From contig JAJDCL010000013.1 of NCBI GenBank assembly GCA_029260875.1, positions 7,985 through 71,984 on the forward strand: a DNA stretch of 64,000 nucleotides. The letters are read 5' to 3'. Below the pieces are notes generated by a model. The model did no database searches, was not told the DNA's origin, and worked only from the letters and a program-made list of their open reading frames with translations. Shown in pieces: positions 1 through 19,109 of this stretch (the first letter of the stretch is position 1; each line of letters begins with the position of its first letter). The DNA comes from Candidatus Saccharimonadota bacterium. Its GTDB lineage: Bacteria; Patescibacteriota; Saccharimonadia; Saccharimonadales; OFTM59. The position numbers were made by a program, and so were the translations under genes.

Positions 1-1
1 T

Positions 2-262
2 ACAAAGTTGGCTCGCTTCTTGTTAAGTTCACCTGATAATGTTGTGAAAAAGTGGGACATTGAAGATTTAGCCCGTGAAGTTTATGACGCTCACTTTGCT
101 AATGCTAAAGATGAAGAAGGATGGAAAATCAAAATAAAGGGCTACGCAAATCATTTTAATCAACAGGTAATGATAGCCTCAGGCGGCAAGATGCCCAAAT
201 TTATAGACAGCAGCAATAAAGGCGTTCTTTACTTTATAAATCCAGATTATCTCAATCTGTAA
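2..262 (+). CDS. hypothetical protein, C-terminal fragment (frame open to window start)
   Basis: The frame has no stop from nt 2. The listed ORF 8..262 begins at TTG. No motif recognised. Confidence 0.4.
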   Translation, partial: TKLARFLLSSPDNVVKKWDIEDLAREVYDAHFANAKDEEGWKIKIKGYANHFNQQVMIASGGKMPKFIDSSNKGVLYFINPDYLNL

Positions 263-313
263 AAAGCTTACTTATCCACAGATTTAAACTGATTATTTTA
301 CAGCTTCTTTGTA

Positions 314-553
314 ATGGGTTATGTGCAGGACAAGAAGAATACCCATCAACAAAATAAGGCTACGAAACAGCAGCCAGTAGACCCACAAGAACAAGCCGCA
401 CATAAAGGCGTGGCTACTGAGTTGAGTGCCGAAGCATTACACAACCTAACAGGTTGGTTTGATGTTCTTATTCAGATGGACCTTGCACAAAAAGTACGTA
501 ATGAAATAAGGAGCAAGGAAAATGGACGAGGAACAGAAAACACGAACAATTGA
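314..553 (+). CDS. hypothetical small protein (element-borne)
   Basis: 79 aa with a Gln/Lys-rich N-terminus. Overlaps the next ORF by 32 nt. No motif recognised. Confidence 0.35.
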   Translation: MGYVQDKKNTHQQNKATKQQPVDPQEQAAHKGVATELSAEALHNLTGWFDVLIQMDLAQKVRNEIRSKENGRGTENTNN

Positions 554-836
554 CCAGTTCAATAATTGGTGCGACCACTGCCAACTGTATGCAGTTAAGT
601 TTTATATCTGGAACACGGAAGCGAACCAGCTAGAAACAATCATTGACGAGGCTATAAACACACTGCCAGGCAAAGTTGGTCCAGAAGACTGGCTTAAATC
701 AATCAGAGCAAGTTTTGGTCAAACACATCACAGCGACATTCGGGATATCGTCACACAGCTTAACTTGATGCTTGAAGCCCCGTGTAAAAACGAGATTTGC
801 CAGGTTGCGTGTGCCAAGTTGAGGAGCAAGAAATGA
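522..836 (+). CDS. hypothetical protein (element-borne)
   Basis: 104 aa. AAGGAG lies about 11 nt upstream of the ATG. Cys-containing (CDHC ... CKNEIC..AC). No family recognised. Confidence 0.4.
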   Translation: MDEEQKTRTIDQFNNWCDHCQLYAVKFYIWNTEANQLETIIDEAINTLPGKVGPEDWLKSIRASFGQTHHSDIRDIVTQLNLMLEAPCKNEICQVACAKLRSKK

Positions 837-955
837 GGCTGCTTTACTCGGTACTCCAAAAGTCACTGCGAAAGTGCATTGATTGGCTTATGAGCTTTTG
901 GCTCTGGGCTAACAAGCAGGAAAAGAAGTTAGAGGAGCGAAAGCGATGGAAGTGA
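833..955 (+). CDS. possible 40-aa coupled small ORF (MRLLYSVLQKSLRKCIDWLMSFWLWANKQEKKLEERKRWK)
   Basis: Found by hand; below the ORF-track cutoff. Its ATG overlaps the previous TGA (ATGA), and its stop overlaps the start region of the next gene. It fills an otherwise empty 110-nt gap. Confidence 0.25.
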   Translation: MRLLYSVLQKSLRKCIDWLMSFWLWANKQEKKLEERKRWK

Positions 956-1257
956 CAGAAGTAAACATCGTGCCTGTCAAAGCTGTTGATGGTTTAGTGG
1001 CTTTTGCCAGCTGTGTGGTCAATGGTCAGCTGTATCTTGGCTCAATGGGCGTGCATCGCCGCCTAGACGGCTCAGGCTACCGCATTACCTACCCAACAAA
1101 GCGGATTGGCAGTCGTGAGCTGAACTACTATCATCCGCTCAACAAACAAGCTGGAAGTGCCATTGAACAAGCTATCGTTGCCAAGTGCAACGAGCTTTTT
1201 GAAAGAAGTGATGACAATTATGGTAGACACAGTAAAACTACTGCTGACAATCAATGA
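946..1257 (+). CDS. SpoVG-family-like protein
   Basis: MEVTEVNIVPVK..DGLVAFASCVVNGQLYLGSMGVHRR.DGSGYRITYPTK....LNYYHPLNKQAGSAIEQAIV follows the SpoVG pattern (MEVTDVRL...KA.ASI..D..F.V..I.V......F.AMPS......D..HP.N...R..I..A.). AGAGGAG SD lies upstream. Confidence 0.6.
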   Translation: MEVTEVNIVPVKAVDGLVAFASCVVNGQLYLGSMGVHRRLDGSGYRITYPTKRIGSRELNYYHPLNKQAGSAIEQAIVAKCNELFERSDDNYGRHSKTTADNQ

Positions 1258-2350
1258 CCCGATGATTTTGCATAGAGGTGCATTCTCACCATTGTCTGTA
1301 CAGCAACTAGTAGGTACGAGAGGCAACCAAAGAACATACCTAAACCCCTCGCCAACCTACGCCAAGATGGGCAAGTATATGCCCCGCTTAACGTTACACC
1401 GCAGACCAAACAAAACTAGGGGCGTTGTGTACCAACTGGCTATCGAGTTTTCTGCACCGAAACTTCTGTTCAAGCAAAACTTTGACGAAGTTACAGAAGC
1501 AGATTTTGAGCCAATTATCGCTGCCTTGCAGCAGTGTATCTTTGAGCTAACTGGTCATAAGTTTTTCCCTCATCAGTTAAAAGAGGCTGAGGTCAATGCG
1601 TGGCATCCGTGCAAGAACGTCGTGTTTATGGATTACACCTCGTGCCAGACCATCCTAAACACAATCGGCAAGTTGGATATAAGCCGCACCTACGACTTGC
1701 AGCGGACTAACTTTAGAGATGGTCACGTCATTCACATCCATTGCAACTCTTTAGATATAGCCTTTTACGACAAGCTGGCTGACCTGCGTCGTGCCAAAAT
1801 AAGTGAAAAACGAGCCTTTGAAAAAGATAACCGCATACAGATGAGCTTGCTTGAACCACTTCGTGAAGTTGCACCTATTGAAGTGTTGCGTTACGAAGTT
1901 CGGCTTGTTGGTAAAAAAGCCGTCGAGCGTGCATACCCAGATATTGAGGCTAGAACATTCGAGGGTCTGTATAAGAAACAGCTATGCCAAGGATTACTGC
2001 TTGAACACTGGGGCAAGTTAACAGCATCAGTAAATATGCTTTCCCTAGACGAGAAACGTCCTTACCAGCTGTTCCAAAACTATTTGATAGAAAACCCTGA
2101 TGCTACGCCGCAAGCTGCACTGGCTGCTACTGCTGTGCTACTCATCAACGGACAAGAGGGCGTACGGAACTTACGCAACCTGATTGAAGCAGCCTATACA
2201 GACACAACTTGGTACAGGATTAAAAAGCTCGCTAAAGCACCTAAAGCACACCGCTTTTCACACTTCCAGCGAGTAACAGACACACTGGAAACATTCACGC
2301 CAACAAAGTTGAGCGAGTATTTAAAACATATTGAAAATAGTAGCAACTAA
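1211..2350 (+). CDS. hypothetical protein, candidate replication initiator (phage/plasmid gene II/X-like N-terminus)
   Basis: The track ORF 1157..2350 overlaps the SpoVG-like gene. The in-frame ATG at 1211 (MTIMVDTVKLLLTI...) is more likely. The N-terminal M-x-D-x-x-x-L-x-L motif and the size resemble filamentous-phage/plasmid Rep proteins. The product call is weak. Confidence 0.5.
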   Translation: MTIMVDTVKLLLTINDPMILHRGAFSPLSVQQLVGTRGNQRTYLNPSPTYAKMGKYMPRLTLHRRPNKTRGVVYQLAIEFSAPKLLFKQNFDEVTEADFEPIIAALQQCIFELTGHKFFPHQLKEAEVNAWHPCKNVVFMDYTSCQTILNTIGKLDISRTYDLQRTNFRDGHVIHIHCNSLDIAFYDKLADLRRAKISEKRAFEKDNRIQMSLLEPLREVAPIEVLRYEVRLVGKKAVERAYPDIEARTFEGLYKKQLCQGLLLEHWGKLTASVNMLSLDEKRPYQLFQNYLIENPDATPQAALAATAVLLINGQEGVRNLRNLIEAAYTDTTWYRIKKLAKAPKAHRFSHFQRVTDTLETFTPTKLSEYLKHIENSSN

Positions 2351-2376
2351 TGTTAAGTTAATAAGGAGTAATAGTT

Positions 2377-3876
2377 ATGGAAAAGAAAATAATACTTATA
2401 GCCAGAGTTTCAGACATAGAGCAACGCAAAGCATTGCCAGCTCAAAAGCAACGGCTAGAAAATTACGCAAGGCAGATAGGTTCAACTTGGAAATACTACG
2501 AGTTTGACGAAAGTGCCTATAAAGACGACAGGCAAAAGTTTGCAACGTTGATTGAAGATAAGGTTCAGTCACTCAAACAACCAGCCATAATCGTCTTTGA
2601 CAAGATTGACCGTTTTACCCGTGATGCCTCACAAAGAGAAGTGCGAATAATGAGCAACCTGGTTGAAAAAGGTAGCATTGAAATACACTTCCCATCAGAC
2701 AACCTGTTCATTACGCAAAACTCGCCAGCGACTGATTTATTTAGGCTCGGCATCGGTATGCTACTGGCAAAATACTATTCAGATGCCAGTCGTGATAATG
2801 TAAAACGCCGTTTTGAACAAATGCTAAATGACGGCATCTGGGTACACAGAGCACCAATCGGCTACAAGAATGTGCTAAAAGGCGGTACACCGCAGAAACC
2901 AATCAAGGACATAGAAGTTGACGAGAACAAGGCACACTACATTGTAAAAGCATTTGAACTGCGTGCTATGGGCAAACCGTATGCGGTTATTGCTAAGGAA
3001 CTTGGAGCAATGGGCTTTCGCAGTAATATCGCCAACAGCAAAGCACCAAACAAGGCGTTCTTAGAACGAATACTGAACAATAAGTTTTACTTCGGTGTTA
3101 TGGTCCACTCTGGCAGAGAGTACAAACATAACTATCCGCCACTGATAAGCCAAGCGTTATTCCGTGAGTGTCAGCGTGTCAAAGAAGAACGCAAGCACGA
3201 GAAAACTAAATACGACAGCAAAGACTACCGCTTTAAGAAAATCGTAAAGTGCGGCAAATGTAAGCGTGCCGTATCGCCATTCCAAGCTCGCAATACCGTT
3301 TACCTACGTTGTGCTAACAATAAGTGCCATAATGCAAACACGGCTGAAAGTCTTATACTGGATGGTGTGACAGCGGACGTAACCTATGTAGATGTGCCAG
3401 AAGAATGGATTGACCAGGTCATTGCTGAATTACGCAACAGGCACGATAACCAGCAGCTGTACTTCACTCAGAACATTGAACAGACCAGGAACGAATACGA
3501 CAAAATCAAAGGCAAAATGCGAAAGATTTACCACGATTTGCTTGATGGGCGTATTACTCAGGATATGCACGACGAAATTGCTAATGAGCTAGAAGCTCGG
3601 CAGCAAGAATTGAATGACCGCCTAAAGTTGCTAACAAGCGATAACAAGTCGTTCCAAGTGACTGCTTCTTATCTGTTAGACCTAGCCCAACGCTCTGCTG
3701 AGCTGTTCAGAACAAGCGATGAAGCGTTGCAACAGAAACTTTTGGAATATGTACTTTCAAACATTGAATTAAAGGACAAAAAGCTGTCTTATATACTAAA
3801 CGACCCCTTTAGAACCATCGTTGAGGCAAAGAAAAAGAGCCTTTCGGCTCATAATTCAAATATTTGGTGCGGGTAA
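2377..3876 (+). CDS. large serine recombinase (serine integrase)
   Basis: N-terminal resolvase motif IILIARVSDIEQRKALPAQKQRL (catalytic Ser in RVSD). Recombinase domain. Zinc ribbon CGKCKRAVSP...LRCANNKCHN. C-terminal coiled coil. Strong SD AAGGAG. Confidence 0.9.
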   Translation: MEKKIILIARVSDIEQRKALPAQKQRLENYARQIGSTWKYYEFDESAYKDDRQKFATLIEDKVQSLKQPAIIVFDKIDRFTRDASQREVRIMSNLVEKGSIEIHFPSDNLFITQNSPATDLFRLGIGMLLAKYYSDASRDNVKRRFEQMLNDGIWVHRAPIGYKNVLKGGTPQKPIKDIEVDENKAHYIVKAFELRAMGKPYAVIAKELGAMGFRSNIANSKAPNKAFLERILNNKFYFGVMVHSGREYKHNYPPLISQALFRECQRVKEERKHEKTKYDSKDYRFKKIVKCGKCKRAVSPFQARNTVYLRCANNKCHNANTAESLILDGVTADVTYVDVPEEWIDQVIAELRNRHDNQQLYFTQNIEQTRNEYDKIKGKMRKIYHDLLDGRITQDMHDEIANELEARQQELNDRLKLLTSDNKSFQVTASYLLDLAQRSAELFRTSDEALQQKLLEYVLSNIELKDKKLSYILNDPFRTIVEAKKKSLSAHNSNIWCG

Positions 3877-3941
3877 AGGGACTCTAACCCTTGGCCTCGT
3901 CCTTGGCAAGGACGCGCTCTAAACAACTGAGCTACACCCGC
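3865..3941 (-). tRNA. tRNA-Gly (anticodon GCC), CCA encoded
   Basis: The minus strand reads GCGGGTGTAGCTCAGTTGTTTAGAGCGCGTCCTTGCCAAGGACGAGGCCAAGGGTTAGAGTCCCTTTACCCGCACCA. This folds as a cloverleaf with anticodon loop TTGCCAA. The 3' 12 nt overlap the integrase stop. Confidence 0.9.
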
Positions 3942-3974: not shown

Positions 3975-4128
3975 TGAGTTTTTAAAGAGTGCGTTCTTGG
4001 CCTGGCAAGGACGGCCACACTAGCGCGACCCCGAAACTTTCATACTTTAAACCATTTTAAAATCTGAAAGATTGCCTTGCAAGCTGCCATCGGGCAGTTC
4101 TCATTCTAAACAACTGAGCTACACCCGC
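3975..4128 (-). pseudogene. decayed tRNA-Gly copy (perfect 5' 24 nt, about 90-nt unrelated insert, degenerate anticodon/T-arm remnants)
   Basis: 4105..4130 is a perfect 26-nt direct repeat of 3918..3943 (tRNA nt 1-24 plus 2 upstream nt), and the D-stem is broken after it. 3996..4013 matches the tRNA anticodon/variable region with a 7-nt deletion. Weak similarity continues to CTCTTTA (vs CCCTTTA). Confidence 0.5.
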
Positions 4129-8267: not shown

Positions 8268-8555
8268 TATGTCTTTATTGTAGGTCTAGAAGACAAAATA
8301 CCAAAATAATTATTGCAATCTATCGGTTTTGCGACCTTCATAACCCCCGGCATGTTGTTTAATATCGCGCCTAGGATCTATAATCGCACTCTTTACGGAG
8401 GCAGTGGCTGTGAGTGTAAAAAATTCTACTGGTATGGTTCGCCACTAACAAGACAAACATTTTAATATTGGTCAGTCAAACCGTCCACGTAATTGCTGTT
8501 GGTAATTTGAGGTTGTACGCAAAAATAAGTTAAGATAATAGTATAGTACTTAAGA

Positions 8556-8643
8556 AGCGCGAGTGGCGGAATTGGTAGACGCGCTAGCTTCAGGGGCTAG
8601 TGGGCTTCGGCTCATGGAGGTTCAAGTCCTCTCTCGCGCACCA
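8556..8643 (+). tRNA. tRNA-Leu (anticodon CAG), long variable arm, CCA encoded
   Basis: GCGCGAGTGGCGGAATTGGTAGACGCGCTAGCTTCAGGGGCTAGTGGGCTTCGGCTCATGGAGGTTCAAGTCCTCTCTCGCGCACCA. Confidence 0.9.
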
Positions 8644-8813
8644 ATAAATATGTCGGCCGTATTACCGGCTTATTTATTGGTTTGGTAGAATGTCTTGGAC
8701 CTCGGTACCCGAAGGGTGGAGGGTCTTGGAGCGAGGACACGCGCAGGAGTTTATTCCGAGCATGCCGCAGCGGATAAAGGACGAAGTCCGCTAGTCCTCT
8801 CTCGCGCGCACCA
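8644..8813 (+). repeat. tRNA-Leu-associated 170-nt structured element, copy 1 (ends in a duplicate of the tRNA 3' end)
   Basis: Near-identical inverted copy at 10977..11144. It begins with a 16-bp hairpin that includes the tRNA CCA. It ends GTCCTCTCTCGCGCGCACCA, which matches the last 18 nt of the tRNA plus a GC insertion. Confidence 0.8.
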
Positions 8814-8870
8814 AGATTGAACCTATCGCGTATCTCTGTATTTTGTAGTACTATACGCTGGTAACTTTTG

Positions 8871-8947
8871 GGGCGCTTAGCTCAGTTGGCTAGAGCATCT
8901 CGTTTACACCGAGAGGGTCGGGGGTTCGAGTCCCTCAGCGCCCACCA
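8871..8947 (+). tRNA. tRNA-Val (anticodon TAC), CCA encoded
   Basis: GGGCGCTTAGCTCAGTTGGCTAGAGCATCTCGTTTACACCGAGAGGGTCGGGGGTTCGAGTCCCTCAGCGCCCACCA. Anticodon loop TTTACAC. Confidence 0.9.
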
Positions 8948-10976: not shown

Positions 10977-11144
10977 TGGTGCGCGAGAGAGGACTAGCGG
11001 ACTTCGTCCTTTATCCGCTGCGGCATGCTCGGAGTAAACTCCTGCGCGTGTCCTCGCTCCAAGACCCTCCACCCTTCGGGTACCGAGGTCCAAGACATTC
11101 TACCAAACCAATAAATAAGCCGGTAATAAGGCCGGCATATTTAT
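10977..11144 (-). repeat. tRNA-Leu-associated structured element, copy 2
   Basis: Reverse complement of copy 1, with 3 substitutions and one 2-nt indel. It directly follows tRNA-Leu(GAG) and ends in an exact GTCCTCTCTCGCGCACCA. Confidence 0.8.
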
Positions 11145-11231
11145 TGGTGCGCGAGAGAGGACTTGAACCTCCAAGGTTTTTACACCACAGCCACCTCAAG
11201 GCTGCGCGTCTACCAATTTCGCCACTCGCGC
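11145..11231 (-). tRNA. tRNA-Leu (anticodon GAG), CCA encoded
   Basis: The minus strand reads GCGCGAGTGGCGAAATTGGTAGACGCGCAGCCTTGAGGTGGCTGTGGTGTAAAAACCTTGGAGGTTCAAGTCCTCTCTCGCGCACCA. Confidence 0.9.
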
Positions 11232-18626: not shown

Positions 18627-19109
18627 ATGGCGAGAATAAATCAGTCAACAAAATATATCCTTGAAGCATTTATCCCCTATAGTAGGGCCAATCTGCAGCT
18701 GGCATTTAAGCCAGCAACCTTTTTCCGGGAGCTAGAAAAAATAAGCCACACCAAAAGGCGCACACTGCAAAGTGCATATTACCGCGCGATAAAAAGGGGC
18801 TTGTTGGTCATAGACGACACCGGCATACCTCGCTTAACAACTAAGGGGCGCCATAAGGTTAAGGCCTACAGCCCGTCTCGTCTTAGTAAGGGCGCCTGCA
18901 TAATTGTAGTTTTCGATATTCCTGAGAGCGAGCGTGCCAAGCGCTCTCATTTACGGGCATTGCTGCGCGAGCTTTCGTTTACAAAAGTTCAGCAAAGCGT
19001 GTGGATGTCCCGGTATGATCATCGTGAATATATAGCGATGGAGCTAAAAGAATACAGTCTAGAGAAAAATGTAGTTGTCTATGAAGCTCTTAAGCTCAAC
19101 ATCAAATAG
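18627..19109 (+). CDS. PaaX-like / Cas2-fold domain protein (wHTH N-terminus plus ferredoxin-like C-terminus)
   Basis: The C-terminal half, ..CIIVVFDIPESERAKRSHLRALLRELSFTKVQQSVWMSRYD.., follows the (V/I)xFDIPE..R..R..LR..L...GF..LQ.SVW pattern shared by the PaaX C-terminal domain and Cas2-like proteins. It is a lone plus-strand gene in a minus-strand run. Confidence 0.55.
   Translation: MARINQSTKYILEAFIPYSRANLQLAFKPATFFRELEKISHTKRRTLQSAYYRAIKRGLLVIDDTGIPRLTTKGRHKVKAYSPSRLSKGACIIVVFDIPESERAKRSHLRALLRELSFTKVQQSVWMSRYDHREYIAMELKEYSLEKNVVVYEALKLNIK

Follow-up and report, generated by a model that had tools for sequence, protein, structure and literature searches.

Short inserts behind two tRNA-Leu genes of a Saccharibacterium belong to a modular family of non-coding elements at tRNA 3' ends

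The window analysed here, a stretch of 64,000 nucleotides (nt) from Candidatus Saccharimonadota bacterium (contig JAJDCL010000013.1, positions 7,985 to 71,984 of the forward strand), carries a near-identical insert of about 170 nt directly behind each of two tRNA-Leu genes. Both inserts belong to a modular family of non-coding elements, about 130-190 nt in length, located at the 3' ends of Saccharibacteria tRNA genes. Each is a composite in which a terminator hairpin is combined with two copies of the tRNA 3' half, one inverted and one direct but partial, and with a core of about 67 nt which, judging from covariation, is a conserved structured RNA folded on the tRNA strand. We found no description of these elements in the literature. 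The reading that we favour, and to which we give about an even chance, is that they are non-autonomous mobile elements with a structured RNA.

Composition of the two window inserts

The two copies, located at 8644-8813 (+) after tRNA-Leu(CAG) and at 11144-10977 (-) after tRNA-Leu(GAG), are inverted relative to each other, 2.2 kb apart and 98% identical, with unrelated flanks. As the initial annotation had noticed, they differ in pairwise alignment by three substitutions (8656 T/C, 8662 G/T and 8753 T/C) and a GC indel, and their similarity breaks off precisely at the distal ACCA. Two of the three substitutions fall in stems, where they change C-G or G-C into U-G or G-U, in agreement with the G-C to G-U type of change first described. 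A 29-nt core probe has two matches in the window, both in the inserts (0 expected), and the 170-nt insert has no open reading frame (ORF). The inverted pair flanks a tRNA-Val gene, a small ORF and a flavin adenine dinucleotide (FAD)-linked oxidase gene; the window organism is a Saccharibacterium (candidate phyla radiation, CPR), and the homologues of this oxidase are from Candidatus Saccharibacteria.

The 3' halves of the two host tRNA genes (Table 1) are identical. Their 18-nt 3' end, GTCCTCTCTCGCGCACCA, occurs four times in the window, once in each of the two tRNA-Leu genes and once in each distal repeat, against an expectation of 0.02, and the repeat initially reported in fact covers 19 nt, the last 19 nt of tRNA-Leu(CAG) (8625-8643) being found again at 8793-8813. 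Between the tRNA and this displaced 3' end, which we call B2, lie a terminator-like hairpin, a segment that copies the tRNA 3' half in inverted orientation (IR), a hairpin (H1), the 3' strand of which (a') is a direct copy of another part of the tRNA, and the core. The first hairpin does include the tRNA CCA, as had been proposed, and satisfies the terminator-like consensus in both window copies; it forms the apex of a long imperfect palindrome made of the tRNA 3' half and its inverted copy. The IR of copy 1 holds an extended -10-like stretch, TGGTAGAAT (8683-8691). We considered this stretch as a promoter of the insert and rejected it: it is part of the decayed inverted acceptor copy, it is not conserved in relatives, and the promoter scan was empty there.

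Table 1. Coordinates of the features discussed in the text (positions in the window unless a locus is named)
Feature	Position	Strand	Basis or remark
tRNA-Leu(CAG), intact host gene	8557..8643	+	ARAGORN; Rfam tRNA, 52.7 bits
tRNA-Leu(GAG), intact host gene	11145..11231	-	ARAGORN, Rfam
Terminator-like hairpin, copy 1	8641..8680	+	Folds; terminator-like scan; outer stem pairs the tRNA CCA with TGG (CCAATAAATATG...GGCTTATTTATTGG)
IR, copy 1	8683..8703	+	Inverted, internally deleted tRNA 3' copy: TGGT-AGAATGT-CTTGGACCTC, approximately the reverse complement of GAGGTTCAAGTC...ACCA
Hairpin H1, copy 1	8697..8725	+	GGACCTCGGTACCC-GAA-GGGTGGAGGGTC
a' (H1 3' strand), copy 1	8714-8725	+	GGGTGGAGGGTC; copies tRNA-Leu variable-arm end, T-stem 5' strand and T-loop start
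Family-A core, copy 1	8726..8792	+	Conserved structured RNA; 7-nt leader TTGGAGC; covariation
Helix Pa, copy 1 core	8731-8732 and 8736-8742 with 8760-8766 and 8770-8771	+	Predicted; covariation
Hairpin Pb, copy 1 core	8746-8749 with 8754-8757	+	Predicted; covariation
Hairpin Pc, copy 1 core	8779-8789	+	GGAC-GAA-GTCC
B2, copy 1	8793..8813	+	Displaced copy of tRNA nt 58-76 (AGTCCTCTCTCGCGC[GC]ACCA), with a 2-nt GC insertion
Terminator-like hairpin, copy 2	11108..11147	-	Folds; terminator-like scan
IR and H1, copy 2	11063..11105 (IR 11085-11105; H1 11063-11091; a' 11063-11074)	-	Sequence
Family-A core, copy 2	10996..11062	-	One substitution relative to copy 1: G-C pair in Pb where copy 1 has G-U
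B2, copy 2	10977..10995	-	Exact 19-nt tRNA 3'-end copy; 59 nt upstream of the FAD-oxidase start codon
Degenerate partial tRNA-Gly(GCC) copy	3991-4128	-	About 50 nt upstream of intact tRNA-Gly 3865-3941 (-); 5' 24 nt at 4105-4128, rest at 3991-4013
Family-C core in tRNA-Gly copy	4014-4104	-	D-loop interruption; L082 has two C cores at this site, one nested in the other
Large serine recombinase, 499 aa (Resolvase and Recombinase domains)	2377-3876	+	Pfam scan
397-aa ORF upstream of the serine recombinase	1157-2350	+	No Pfam match
Cassette locus L140 (tRNA-Gly)			
Cassette locus L168 (tRNA-Arg CCT)	13160-13960 of L168		
Cassette locus L185 (tRNA-Glu)	5020-11070 of L185		

Extent, anatomy and fold of the family

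A scan of one genome per species yielded 80 syntenic Saccharimonadales loci, in which the oxidase gene is flanked by the same two tRNA-Leu genes in variable orientation. At these loci the Leu-CAG, Leu-GAG, Val, Phe and Gly tRNAs often have a copy of their own 3' end about 140-190 nt downstream (13-22 nt, usually starting in the T-loop). In profile searches the cores fall into four families (A to D); the window inserts belong to family A, which is also present behind tRNA-Phe and tRNA-Val in other genomes. By combining a metagenome scan with a degenerate family-A motif (at least 120 stretches) and the other loci of the analysis, we collected at least 130 occurrences of the family-A core in related genomes and metagenomes. 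Among the family-A matches listed (n=130), 103 have a same-strand tRNA upstream within 260 nt, and the host tRNAs cover at least 29 anticodons and at least 18 amino acids; the distance to the tRNA is 78-128 nt for 100 of these matches, 21 nt for one (L166) and about 245 nt for three. Further copies of the core are thus found behind many other tRNAs, and the tRNA / insert / 3'-end-repeat signature pointed out in the initial annotation is real and general in the family. That annotation had proposed either an element or a structured RNA at tRNA-Leu genes: the insert does contain a conserved structured RNA, while the specificity for tRNA-Leu is lost, as host tRNAs for at least 18 amino acids are known. 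Finally, a different insert of about 75-100 nt (..ATTACAGATACnAAAG.., a hairpin and a degenerate T-arm copy at the end) is found after both tRNA-Leu genes in L059 and at 5103-5215 in L185, which suggests further families beyond A-D. The elements have no match among Rfam, phage, plasmid or viral sequences.

Anatomical counts were made on sets of 100, 51 and 53 sequences drawn from the family-A matches listed. The layout is constant: intact tRNA, terminator-like hairpin, IR, in many members an apical hairpin module, a', core and B2. The terminator-like hairpin, with CCA and TGG in its stem, follows the tRNA in 81 of 100 members. The apical module (e.g. GAGATTTTGC....GCAAAATATCGTAG) is conserved whatever the tRNA and is reduced in the window elements to the short apex of H1. 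As for the direct copies, a' corresponds to tRNA nt ~44-57, with exactly 19 nt of tRNA remaining beyond its end in 60 of 100 members, and B2 begins 18 or 19 nt before the 3' terminus of the tRNA in 57 and reaches the CCA in 52. The core is thus inserted precisely, between nt 57 and 58 in the T-loop of a partial copy of the tRNA. All three copied segments follow the adjacent tRNA, their match being longer with their own tRNA than with other tRNAs (10.5 vs 7.6 nt for a', 15.3 vs 7.8 nt for B2 and 10.9 vs 7.8 nt for IR). No uninterrupted partial tRNA copy ('empty pad') was found in 208 loci, except for a reversed C element and an anticodon-loop A core.

The prediction that homologues of the insert would show covariation is borne out for the core. 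RNAalifold, applied to 17 sequences and then to 53 distinct cores, predicts a helix (Pa) broken by conserved purine-rich loops and a hairpin (Pb). In the alignment of 53 cores, 99.1% of the cells of 11 pairs are paired and 10 of the 11 pairs show double changes. There are 80 double-change cells, against 22.9 +/- 3.5 in shuffled alignments, none of 500 shuffles reaching 80 or the observed value on any of five measures, and slid controls give at most seven. The strand, ambiguous in the smaller alignment (conserved A-C oppositions), was settled by the larger one, in which wobble on the tRNA-sense strand amounts to 21 G-U vs 2 A-C. The window and L082 cores have A-U where the majority of members has G-C, and variants of the third hairpin, Pc, visibly covary (GGAC/GTCC, GGCC/GGCC, GGGC/GCCC and GCAC/GTGC).

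Two other structural proposals fared less well. The closing helix GAGCGAGGAC / GTCCTCTCTC, seen in a single-sequence fold, is feasible in 4 of 51 elements and is not upheld, because GAGGAC is constant in relatives while the 3' repeat follows the tRNA; GAGGAC pairs instead with GCAYGCC in a covarying helix. Similarly, the 'tRNA-like 3' end' stands as far as tRNA 3' sequence is present, but it is a displaced gene fragment (nt 58-76) outside any tRNA-like fold. We also rejected a tRNA-like fold closed by the acceptor stem: the core is invariant to the acceptor sequence, L003 carries the same B core with two different 3' ends, and the acceptor part of IR is degenerate.

A known Rfam family, which could have reclassified the insert, did not emerge. 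Rfam 15 at the gathering threshold over the whole window returned tRNAs only, as did searches at E<=10 on positions 8500-8900 and at E<=1 on five loci with cores A-D. In those scans no covariance model matched for T-box, transfer-messenger RNA (tmRNA), Y RNA/YrlA or integrase-associated motifs, nor for group I or group II introns or known ribozymes.

Cores also occur in other tRNA loops. Those of family C are found upstream of intact tRNAs as well, within partial 5' copies of them: in the T-loop of tRNA-Leu copies (L021, L006, L046 and L082), in the D-loop of tRNA-Gly copies (at 3991-4128 in the window and in L005), in the variable loop of tRNA-Val copies (L024 and L026), and in the anticodon loop after nt 37 in L081, where the acceptor of the copy is unlike that of the adjacent gene. 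A short family-A core lies between nt 37 and 38, in the anticodon loop, of a 50-nt tRNA-Met copy (L166). Small deletions are present at some core junctions. In the interrupted copies, the 5' two-thirds or else the acceptor 3' strand is missing, and an intact tRNA always stands beside them. We examined the cores as true tRNA introns and rejected this possibility, as removal of the C core restores a tRNA in one borderline case only and no complete interrupted tRNA was found. In L172 (1642-1913), the last 80 nt of smpB and a short family-A core form a 157-nt unit which is tandemly duplicated, the copies being 84-91% identical.

Other elements lie away from tRNAs. Among the matches listed without a close tRNA, there are 27 family-A occurrences, preceded by just 6-10 nt of a tRNA 3' terminus and a terminator. 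In L140, L168 and L185, a tRNA is present 0.5-5.8 kb further upstream of the family-A element. The intervening cassettes contain a glyoxalase-like gene (a label judged from the translated sequence), a 123-aa membrane ORF, or a glycosyltransferase/HIT/HAD cluster; they are bounded by 6-8-nt repeats of the tRNA terminus (NNNCCA; GCACCA, GGTCACCA), and no integrase was found in them. These cassettes would fit tRNA genes acting as seeds, with later arrivals pushing earlier ones outward, as in models of tDNA islands in which later arrivals displace older ones (doi 10.1101/2020.12.28.424599; PMC4383910).

Our evidence for gain and loss consists of presence and absence between species. Among 190 orthologous tRNAs in the 80 species, 29 (15%) have a downstream copy of their own last 17 nt. 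The closest relative, L082, with an oxidase 91% identical to that of the window, has no element behind either tRNA-Leu but carries a family-A element behind tRNA-Val; the cores of this Val element and of the window Leu element are about 93% identical, whereas H1 and B2 are Val-specific in L082. Similarly, an Ala and a Met element have 67 of 68 core nt in common but unrelated H1, and core identity is independent of the tRNA type (0.690 for the same anticodon, 0.675 for different ones). Unusual copies include tandem elements in L180, a reversed element in L076, and, in L082, the C core nested inside another one at a site that carries just one core in the window. In some young copies the direct repeat runs through the locus-specific terminator, up to 72 nt. 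A look-up of population variants for the window locus returned only short contigs breaking at the repeats.

Three observations concern the arrangement of this region. The tRNA-Leu(CAG)-tRNA-Val cluster (window 8557-8947) is inverted relative to L082 and L085, and across the 80 species (L002-L081) the two tRNA-Leu genes do not keep a fixed strand with respect to the oxidase. In addition, many short-read oxidase contigs are just 2.0-2.3 kb long, which we read as assemblies breaking at the flanking repeats.

Origin and movement of the elements

For such non-autonomous mobile elements we infer the following mechanism. A unit comprising the 58-76 copy, terminator, IR, a' and core would enter a tRNA gene via the shared 17-22 nt, in a Campbell-type integration; the element-borne 3' end would regenerate the tRNA, and the original 3' end would be moved to the far side. 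The recombinase would act in trans, either as a T-loop- or 3'-end-specific enzyme or as RecA acting on short identity. Cores would spread and be homogenised between elements by gene conversion, with the T-loop flanks (GGTTCG on one side, A/GTCC on the other) as microhomology. As these flanks are near-universal, gene conversion through them would explain both the exact junction between nt 57 and 58 and the many tRNA-specific versions. At the junction of a putative circle, the core 3' end ...GTCCGCT would be joined to AGTCC...ACCA, followed by ATAAATATG. The RNA may come from read-through or from a weak promoter of the element, and may serve element maintenance or movement.

Several arguments lead us to favour this mobile-element reading. 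Integration through a shared segment would regenerate the tRNA and displace the old 3' end, and cores could be exchanged via the conserved T-loop flanks. The core is common to many tRNAs while the flanks follow the tRNA, the junction is positioned exactly, and the RNA structure lies on the tRNA strand. Occupancy is patchy, tandem, nested and reversed copies exist, some young copies have long locus-specific direct repeats, and copying in the window is recent. Finally, cassettes lie between tRNA and element, as expected of later arrivals.

Other points weigh against it. No free or circular form and no autonomous relative was found, searches of viral, phage and plasmid sequences being empty; no autonomous transposase-encoding parent was present in these collections or in the flanks (a search that did not extend to whole genomes). 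Partial Pfam scans of neighbouring ORFs revealed no integrase, transposase or reverse transcriptase in or beside the elements, and the sole nearby recombinase is a serine recombinase at tRNA-Gly, 4.7 kb off, with nothing linking it to the inserts. A DNA element moved by a host recombinase has no obvious need of a covarying RNA fold, and for recombination by RecA 17-22 nt is a short stretch. Since conserved modules alternate with tRNA-specific segments, a single insertion is insufficient and gene conversion must be assumed. Another weak point is the inverted copy, which the mechanism does not explain; the direct-inverted-direct order recalls snap-back duplications. A gain-and-loss history of an old, vertically inherited RNA gene also stays conceivable. 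The initial annotation had opposed a miniature element mobilised in trans to a structured RNA co-transcribed with tRNA-Leu, and both alternatives are partly right; no mobilising enzyme was found, and mobilisation in trans can only be presumed.

The elements could instead be host-beneficial: a structured non-coding RNA gene tied to tRNA genes (for processing, quality control, regulation or protein binding), with functional tRNA-matching segments and with patchiness resulting from losses from an ancient vertical set. We consider this unlikely, although the strong covariation, the G-U pairs on the tRNA-sense strand, the constant layout behind at least 29 anticodons, the pairing of H1 (kept at a mean of 10.8 of 14 positions) and the persistence of the elements in very small genomes all speak for it. 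However, just 15% of orthologous tRNAs are occupied, occupancy differs in the relative with a 91% identical FAD-oxidase, and copies in tandem, nested or reversed arrangement exist. About half of the members have a degenerate B2, and IR decays in its outer part. No conserved promoter is seen, and the terminator-like hairpin stands between tRNA and element in 81 of 100 members. In H1, 66 compensated positions compare with 44 uncompensated ones, a count biased by the choice of the segment compared.

An RNA-programmed mobile system is likewise improbable, though it deserves mention. In such a system, scaffold modules (apical hairpin and core) would be interleaved with segments identical or complementary to the host tRNA, and the RNA would either guide a trans-acting recombinase or, as a core RNA, invade tRNA loops and be copied back into DNA. 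Loop invasion, if true, would give bacteria a parallel to the tRNA-intron transposition of archaea, tolerated in partial tRNA duplicates alone. Set against the favoured mobile-element reading as a full account of the family (an intron-like core RNA invading tRNA loops, fixed by reverse transcription or recombination and surviving in partial duplicates, or else a modular RNA guiding a recombinase), we judge movement at the RNA level quite unlikely. Cores are indeed located in loops only, those of family A between nt 57 and 58 of the T-loop and in one case between anticodon-loop nt 37 and 38 (L166), those of family C in T-, D-, variable and anticodon loops and inside the hairpin of another core. 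Moreover, selection acts on the fold in the tRNA-sense strand, conserved segments alternate with target-specific ones, and a' starts in the variable region, whose modified bases may block reverse transcriptases. Nevertheless, no group I or II intron or ribozyme matched in Rfam, no complete interrupted tRNA was recovered (a tRNA being restored by C-core removal in the one borderline case), some junctions carry small deletions, and the partial Pfam scans revealed no reverse transcriptase, TnpB or IS110-type gene nearby. The inverted copy is left unexplained here too, and group II introns are reported absent from Patescibacteria (PMC13011429).

Still less convincing, and very unlikely in our opinion, is the idea that the inserts are passive scars of integrase islands or prophages at tRNA genes (left attachment site, remnant, right attachment site), or the attachment-site-proximal arm left after internal deletions. 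A regenerated tRNA with a displaced 3' fragment is the defining signature of islands (PMC4383910), the repeats run from T-loop to CCA, cargo of 0.5-5.8 kb lies between tRNA and element in L140, L168 and L185, and a serine-recombinase element abuts tRNA-Gly in the window. Random remnants, however, would lack the constant size, the nucleotide-exact junction between nt 57 and 58 and the covarying fold. The same core behind nearly every kind of tRNA is unexpected under this hypothesis, an integrase fragment is never adjacent, and no phage, plasmid or viral homologues were found; moreover, to the left of B2 lies the core and not the T-stem arm expected of a T-loop attachment core. Finally, a simple local duplication or gene conversion of tRNA-Leu and its downstream spacer, named in the initial annotation as the segmental-duplication alternative and seemingly supported by two 98% identical, inverted copies 2.2 kb apart behind tRNAs with common 3' halves, is refuted by homologous cores behind tRNAs of at least 18 amino acids in many genomes, by the core behind tRNA-Val and none behind tRNA-Leu in L082, and by the core covariation.

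The genomes of Saccharibacteria and of other CPR bacteria measure about 1 Mb and contain few recognised mobile elements. The tRNA genes of Saccharibacteria are dotted with several families of these small structured inserts, which give rise to duplicated tRNA pieces and to inverted repeats, cause short-read assemblies to break, and occur together with local inversions and gene cassettes. If mobile, they would be among the smallest targeted elements known, and one would have to ask how a single core comes to be directed to about 29 tRNAs; a functional RNA would represent a new class, abundant and associated with tRNA genes. In addition, tRNA annotation, genomic-island finders and the binning of CPR genomes can be led astray by such partial copies of tRNAs.

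Comparison with known systems and neighbouring genes

The inserts invite comparison with islands in tRNA and tmRNA genes, as defined by Islander (PMC4383910), and with tycheposons (doi 10.1101/2020.12.28.424599). In both tRNA-gene islands and inserts, the tRNA is kept intact by an insert-borne 3' end while the old 3' fragment marks the far boundary, the repeat runs from T-loop to CCA, and serial arrivals displace older ones, leaving partial tRNAs. Islands, however, measure kilobases, whereas the inserts are 130-190 nt long and have neither integrase nor genes. Unlike islands, inserts also carry an extra inverted tRNA copy and a covarying RNA core located exactly between nt 57 and 58, and one insert core serves about 29 tRNAs, while island integrases are tRNA-specific. 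Williams (2002) is said to have distinguished sublocation classes of tRNA-gene integration. The inserts are akin to insertions that target tRNA genes while preserving the gene, and their mechanism has a real chance of being new.

Short mobile elements provide a second comparison. Miniature inverted-repeat transposable elements (MITEs; e.g. Correia and RUP), cis-mobilisable elements (CIMEs) of streptococcal integrative and conjugative elements, and IS200/IS605-derived palindrome-associated transposable elements (PATEs) are short non-coding sequences in multiple copies, presumably moved by an enzyme whose gene lies elsewhere, and some of them have RNA hairpins, terminators or promoters. The inserts are likewise short, non-coding and present in many copies. 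Unlike MITEs, they have no element-specific terminal inverted repeats, their inverted segments being copies of the host tRNA, and no target duplication of fixed length (direct repeats of 13-72 nt). They further differ from MITE-type elements in that no autonomous parent has come to light, in having target-derived segments inside the unit, and in the selection on an RNA fold of one strand.

Introns offer partial parallels. Archaeal tRNA introns at non-canonical positions, for which transposition has been proposed, are reviewed in PMC4033280, PMC4390854 and PMC4090602; like the inserts, they place related short sequences in the D, anticodon, variable and T loops of different tRNAs. Archaeal introns split functional genes, whereas here the interrupted copies are fragments beside an intact gene, in a bacterial host. 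To our knowledge, no bacterial splicing endonuclease has been described. Group I introns occur in tRNA genes of Patescibacteria (PMC13011429), and resemble the inserts in phylum and in being tRNA-loop insertions mishandled by standard tRNA finders; by contrast, the insert cores measure 55-105 nt, do not match Intron_gpI, and are located in partial copies.

The guide RNAs of mobile elements, namely the omega RNA of TnpB/IscB and the bridge RNA of IS110, join a conserved structured scaffold to segments matching flanking or target DNA. The inserts also combine a scaffold with target-matching segments, and B2 lies 3' of the scaffold, as does the TnpB guide; their target-matching parts, however, are 13-19-nt gene copies, including a self-paired hairpin, and the likeness is one of layout alone. 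Partial Pfam scans detected no TnpB, IscB or IS110 genes beside the elements, the neighbours other than ORF 1157-2350 being housekeeping genes. Finally, the Roth laboratory reportedly described, in Salmonella, tandem inversion duplications formed by snap-back at palindromes. The direct-inverted-direct order of these (here tRNA 3' half, IR, then a' and B2) and the location of the first junction at a palindrome (the terminator) are common to the inserts. In contrast with such duplications, a conserved foreign module stands at the second junction of the inserts, their third copy contains the core, and the construct is found again at many tRNAs.

The serine recombinase gene of the window (Table 1) ends inside the 3' end of tRNA-Gly (3865-3941, -), its last codons, W-C-G-stop, being the reverse complement of ...TTACCCGCACCA; in L082, a recombinase occupies the same position at tRNA-Gly. 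Recombinase and tRNA-Gly together look like an integrated element, and the 397-aa ORF may be part of its cargo; within window 1-3864, no second copy of the tRNA-Gly 3' end was found. The same ORF was considered as a TnpB-like protein and discarded, having no Pfam match. Elsewhere in the window, a 160-aa ORF at 18627-19109 (+) matches the Cas2-like PaaX_M and CRISPR_Cas2 domains.

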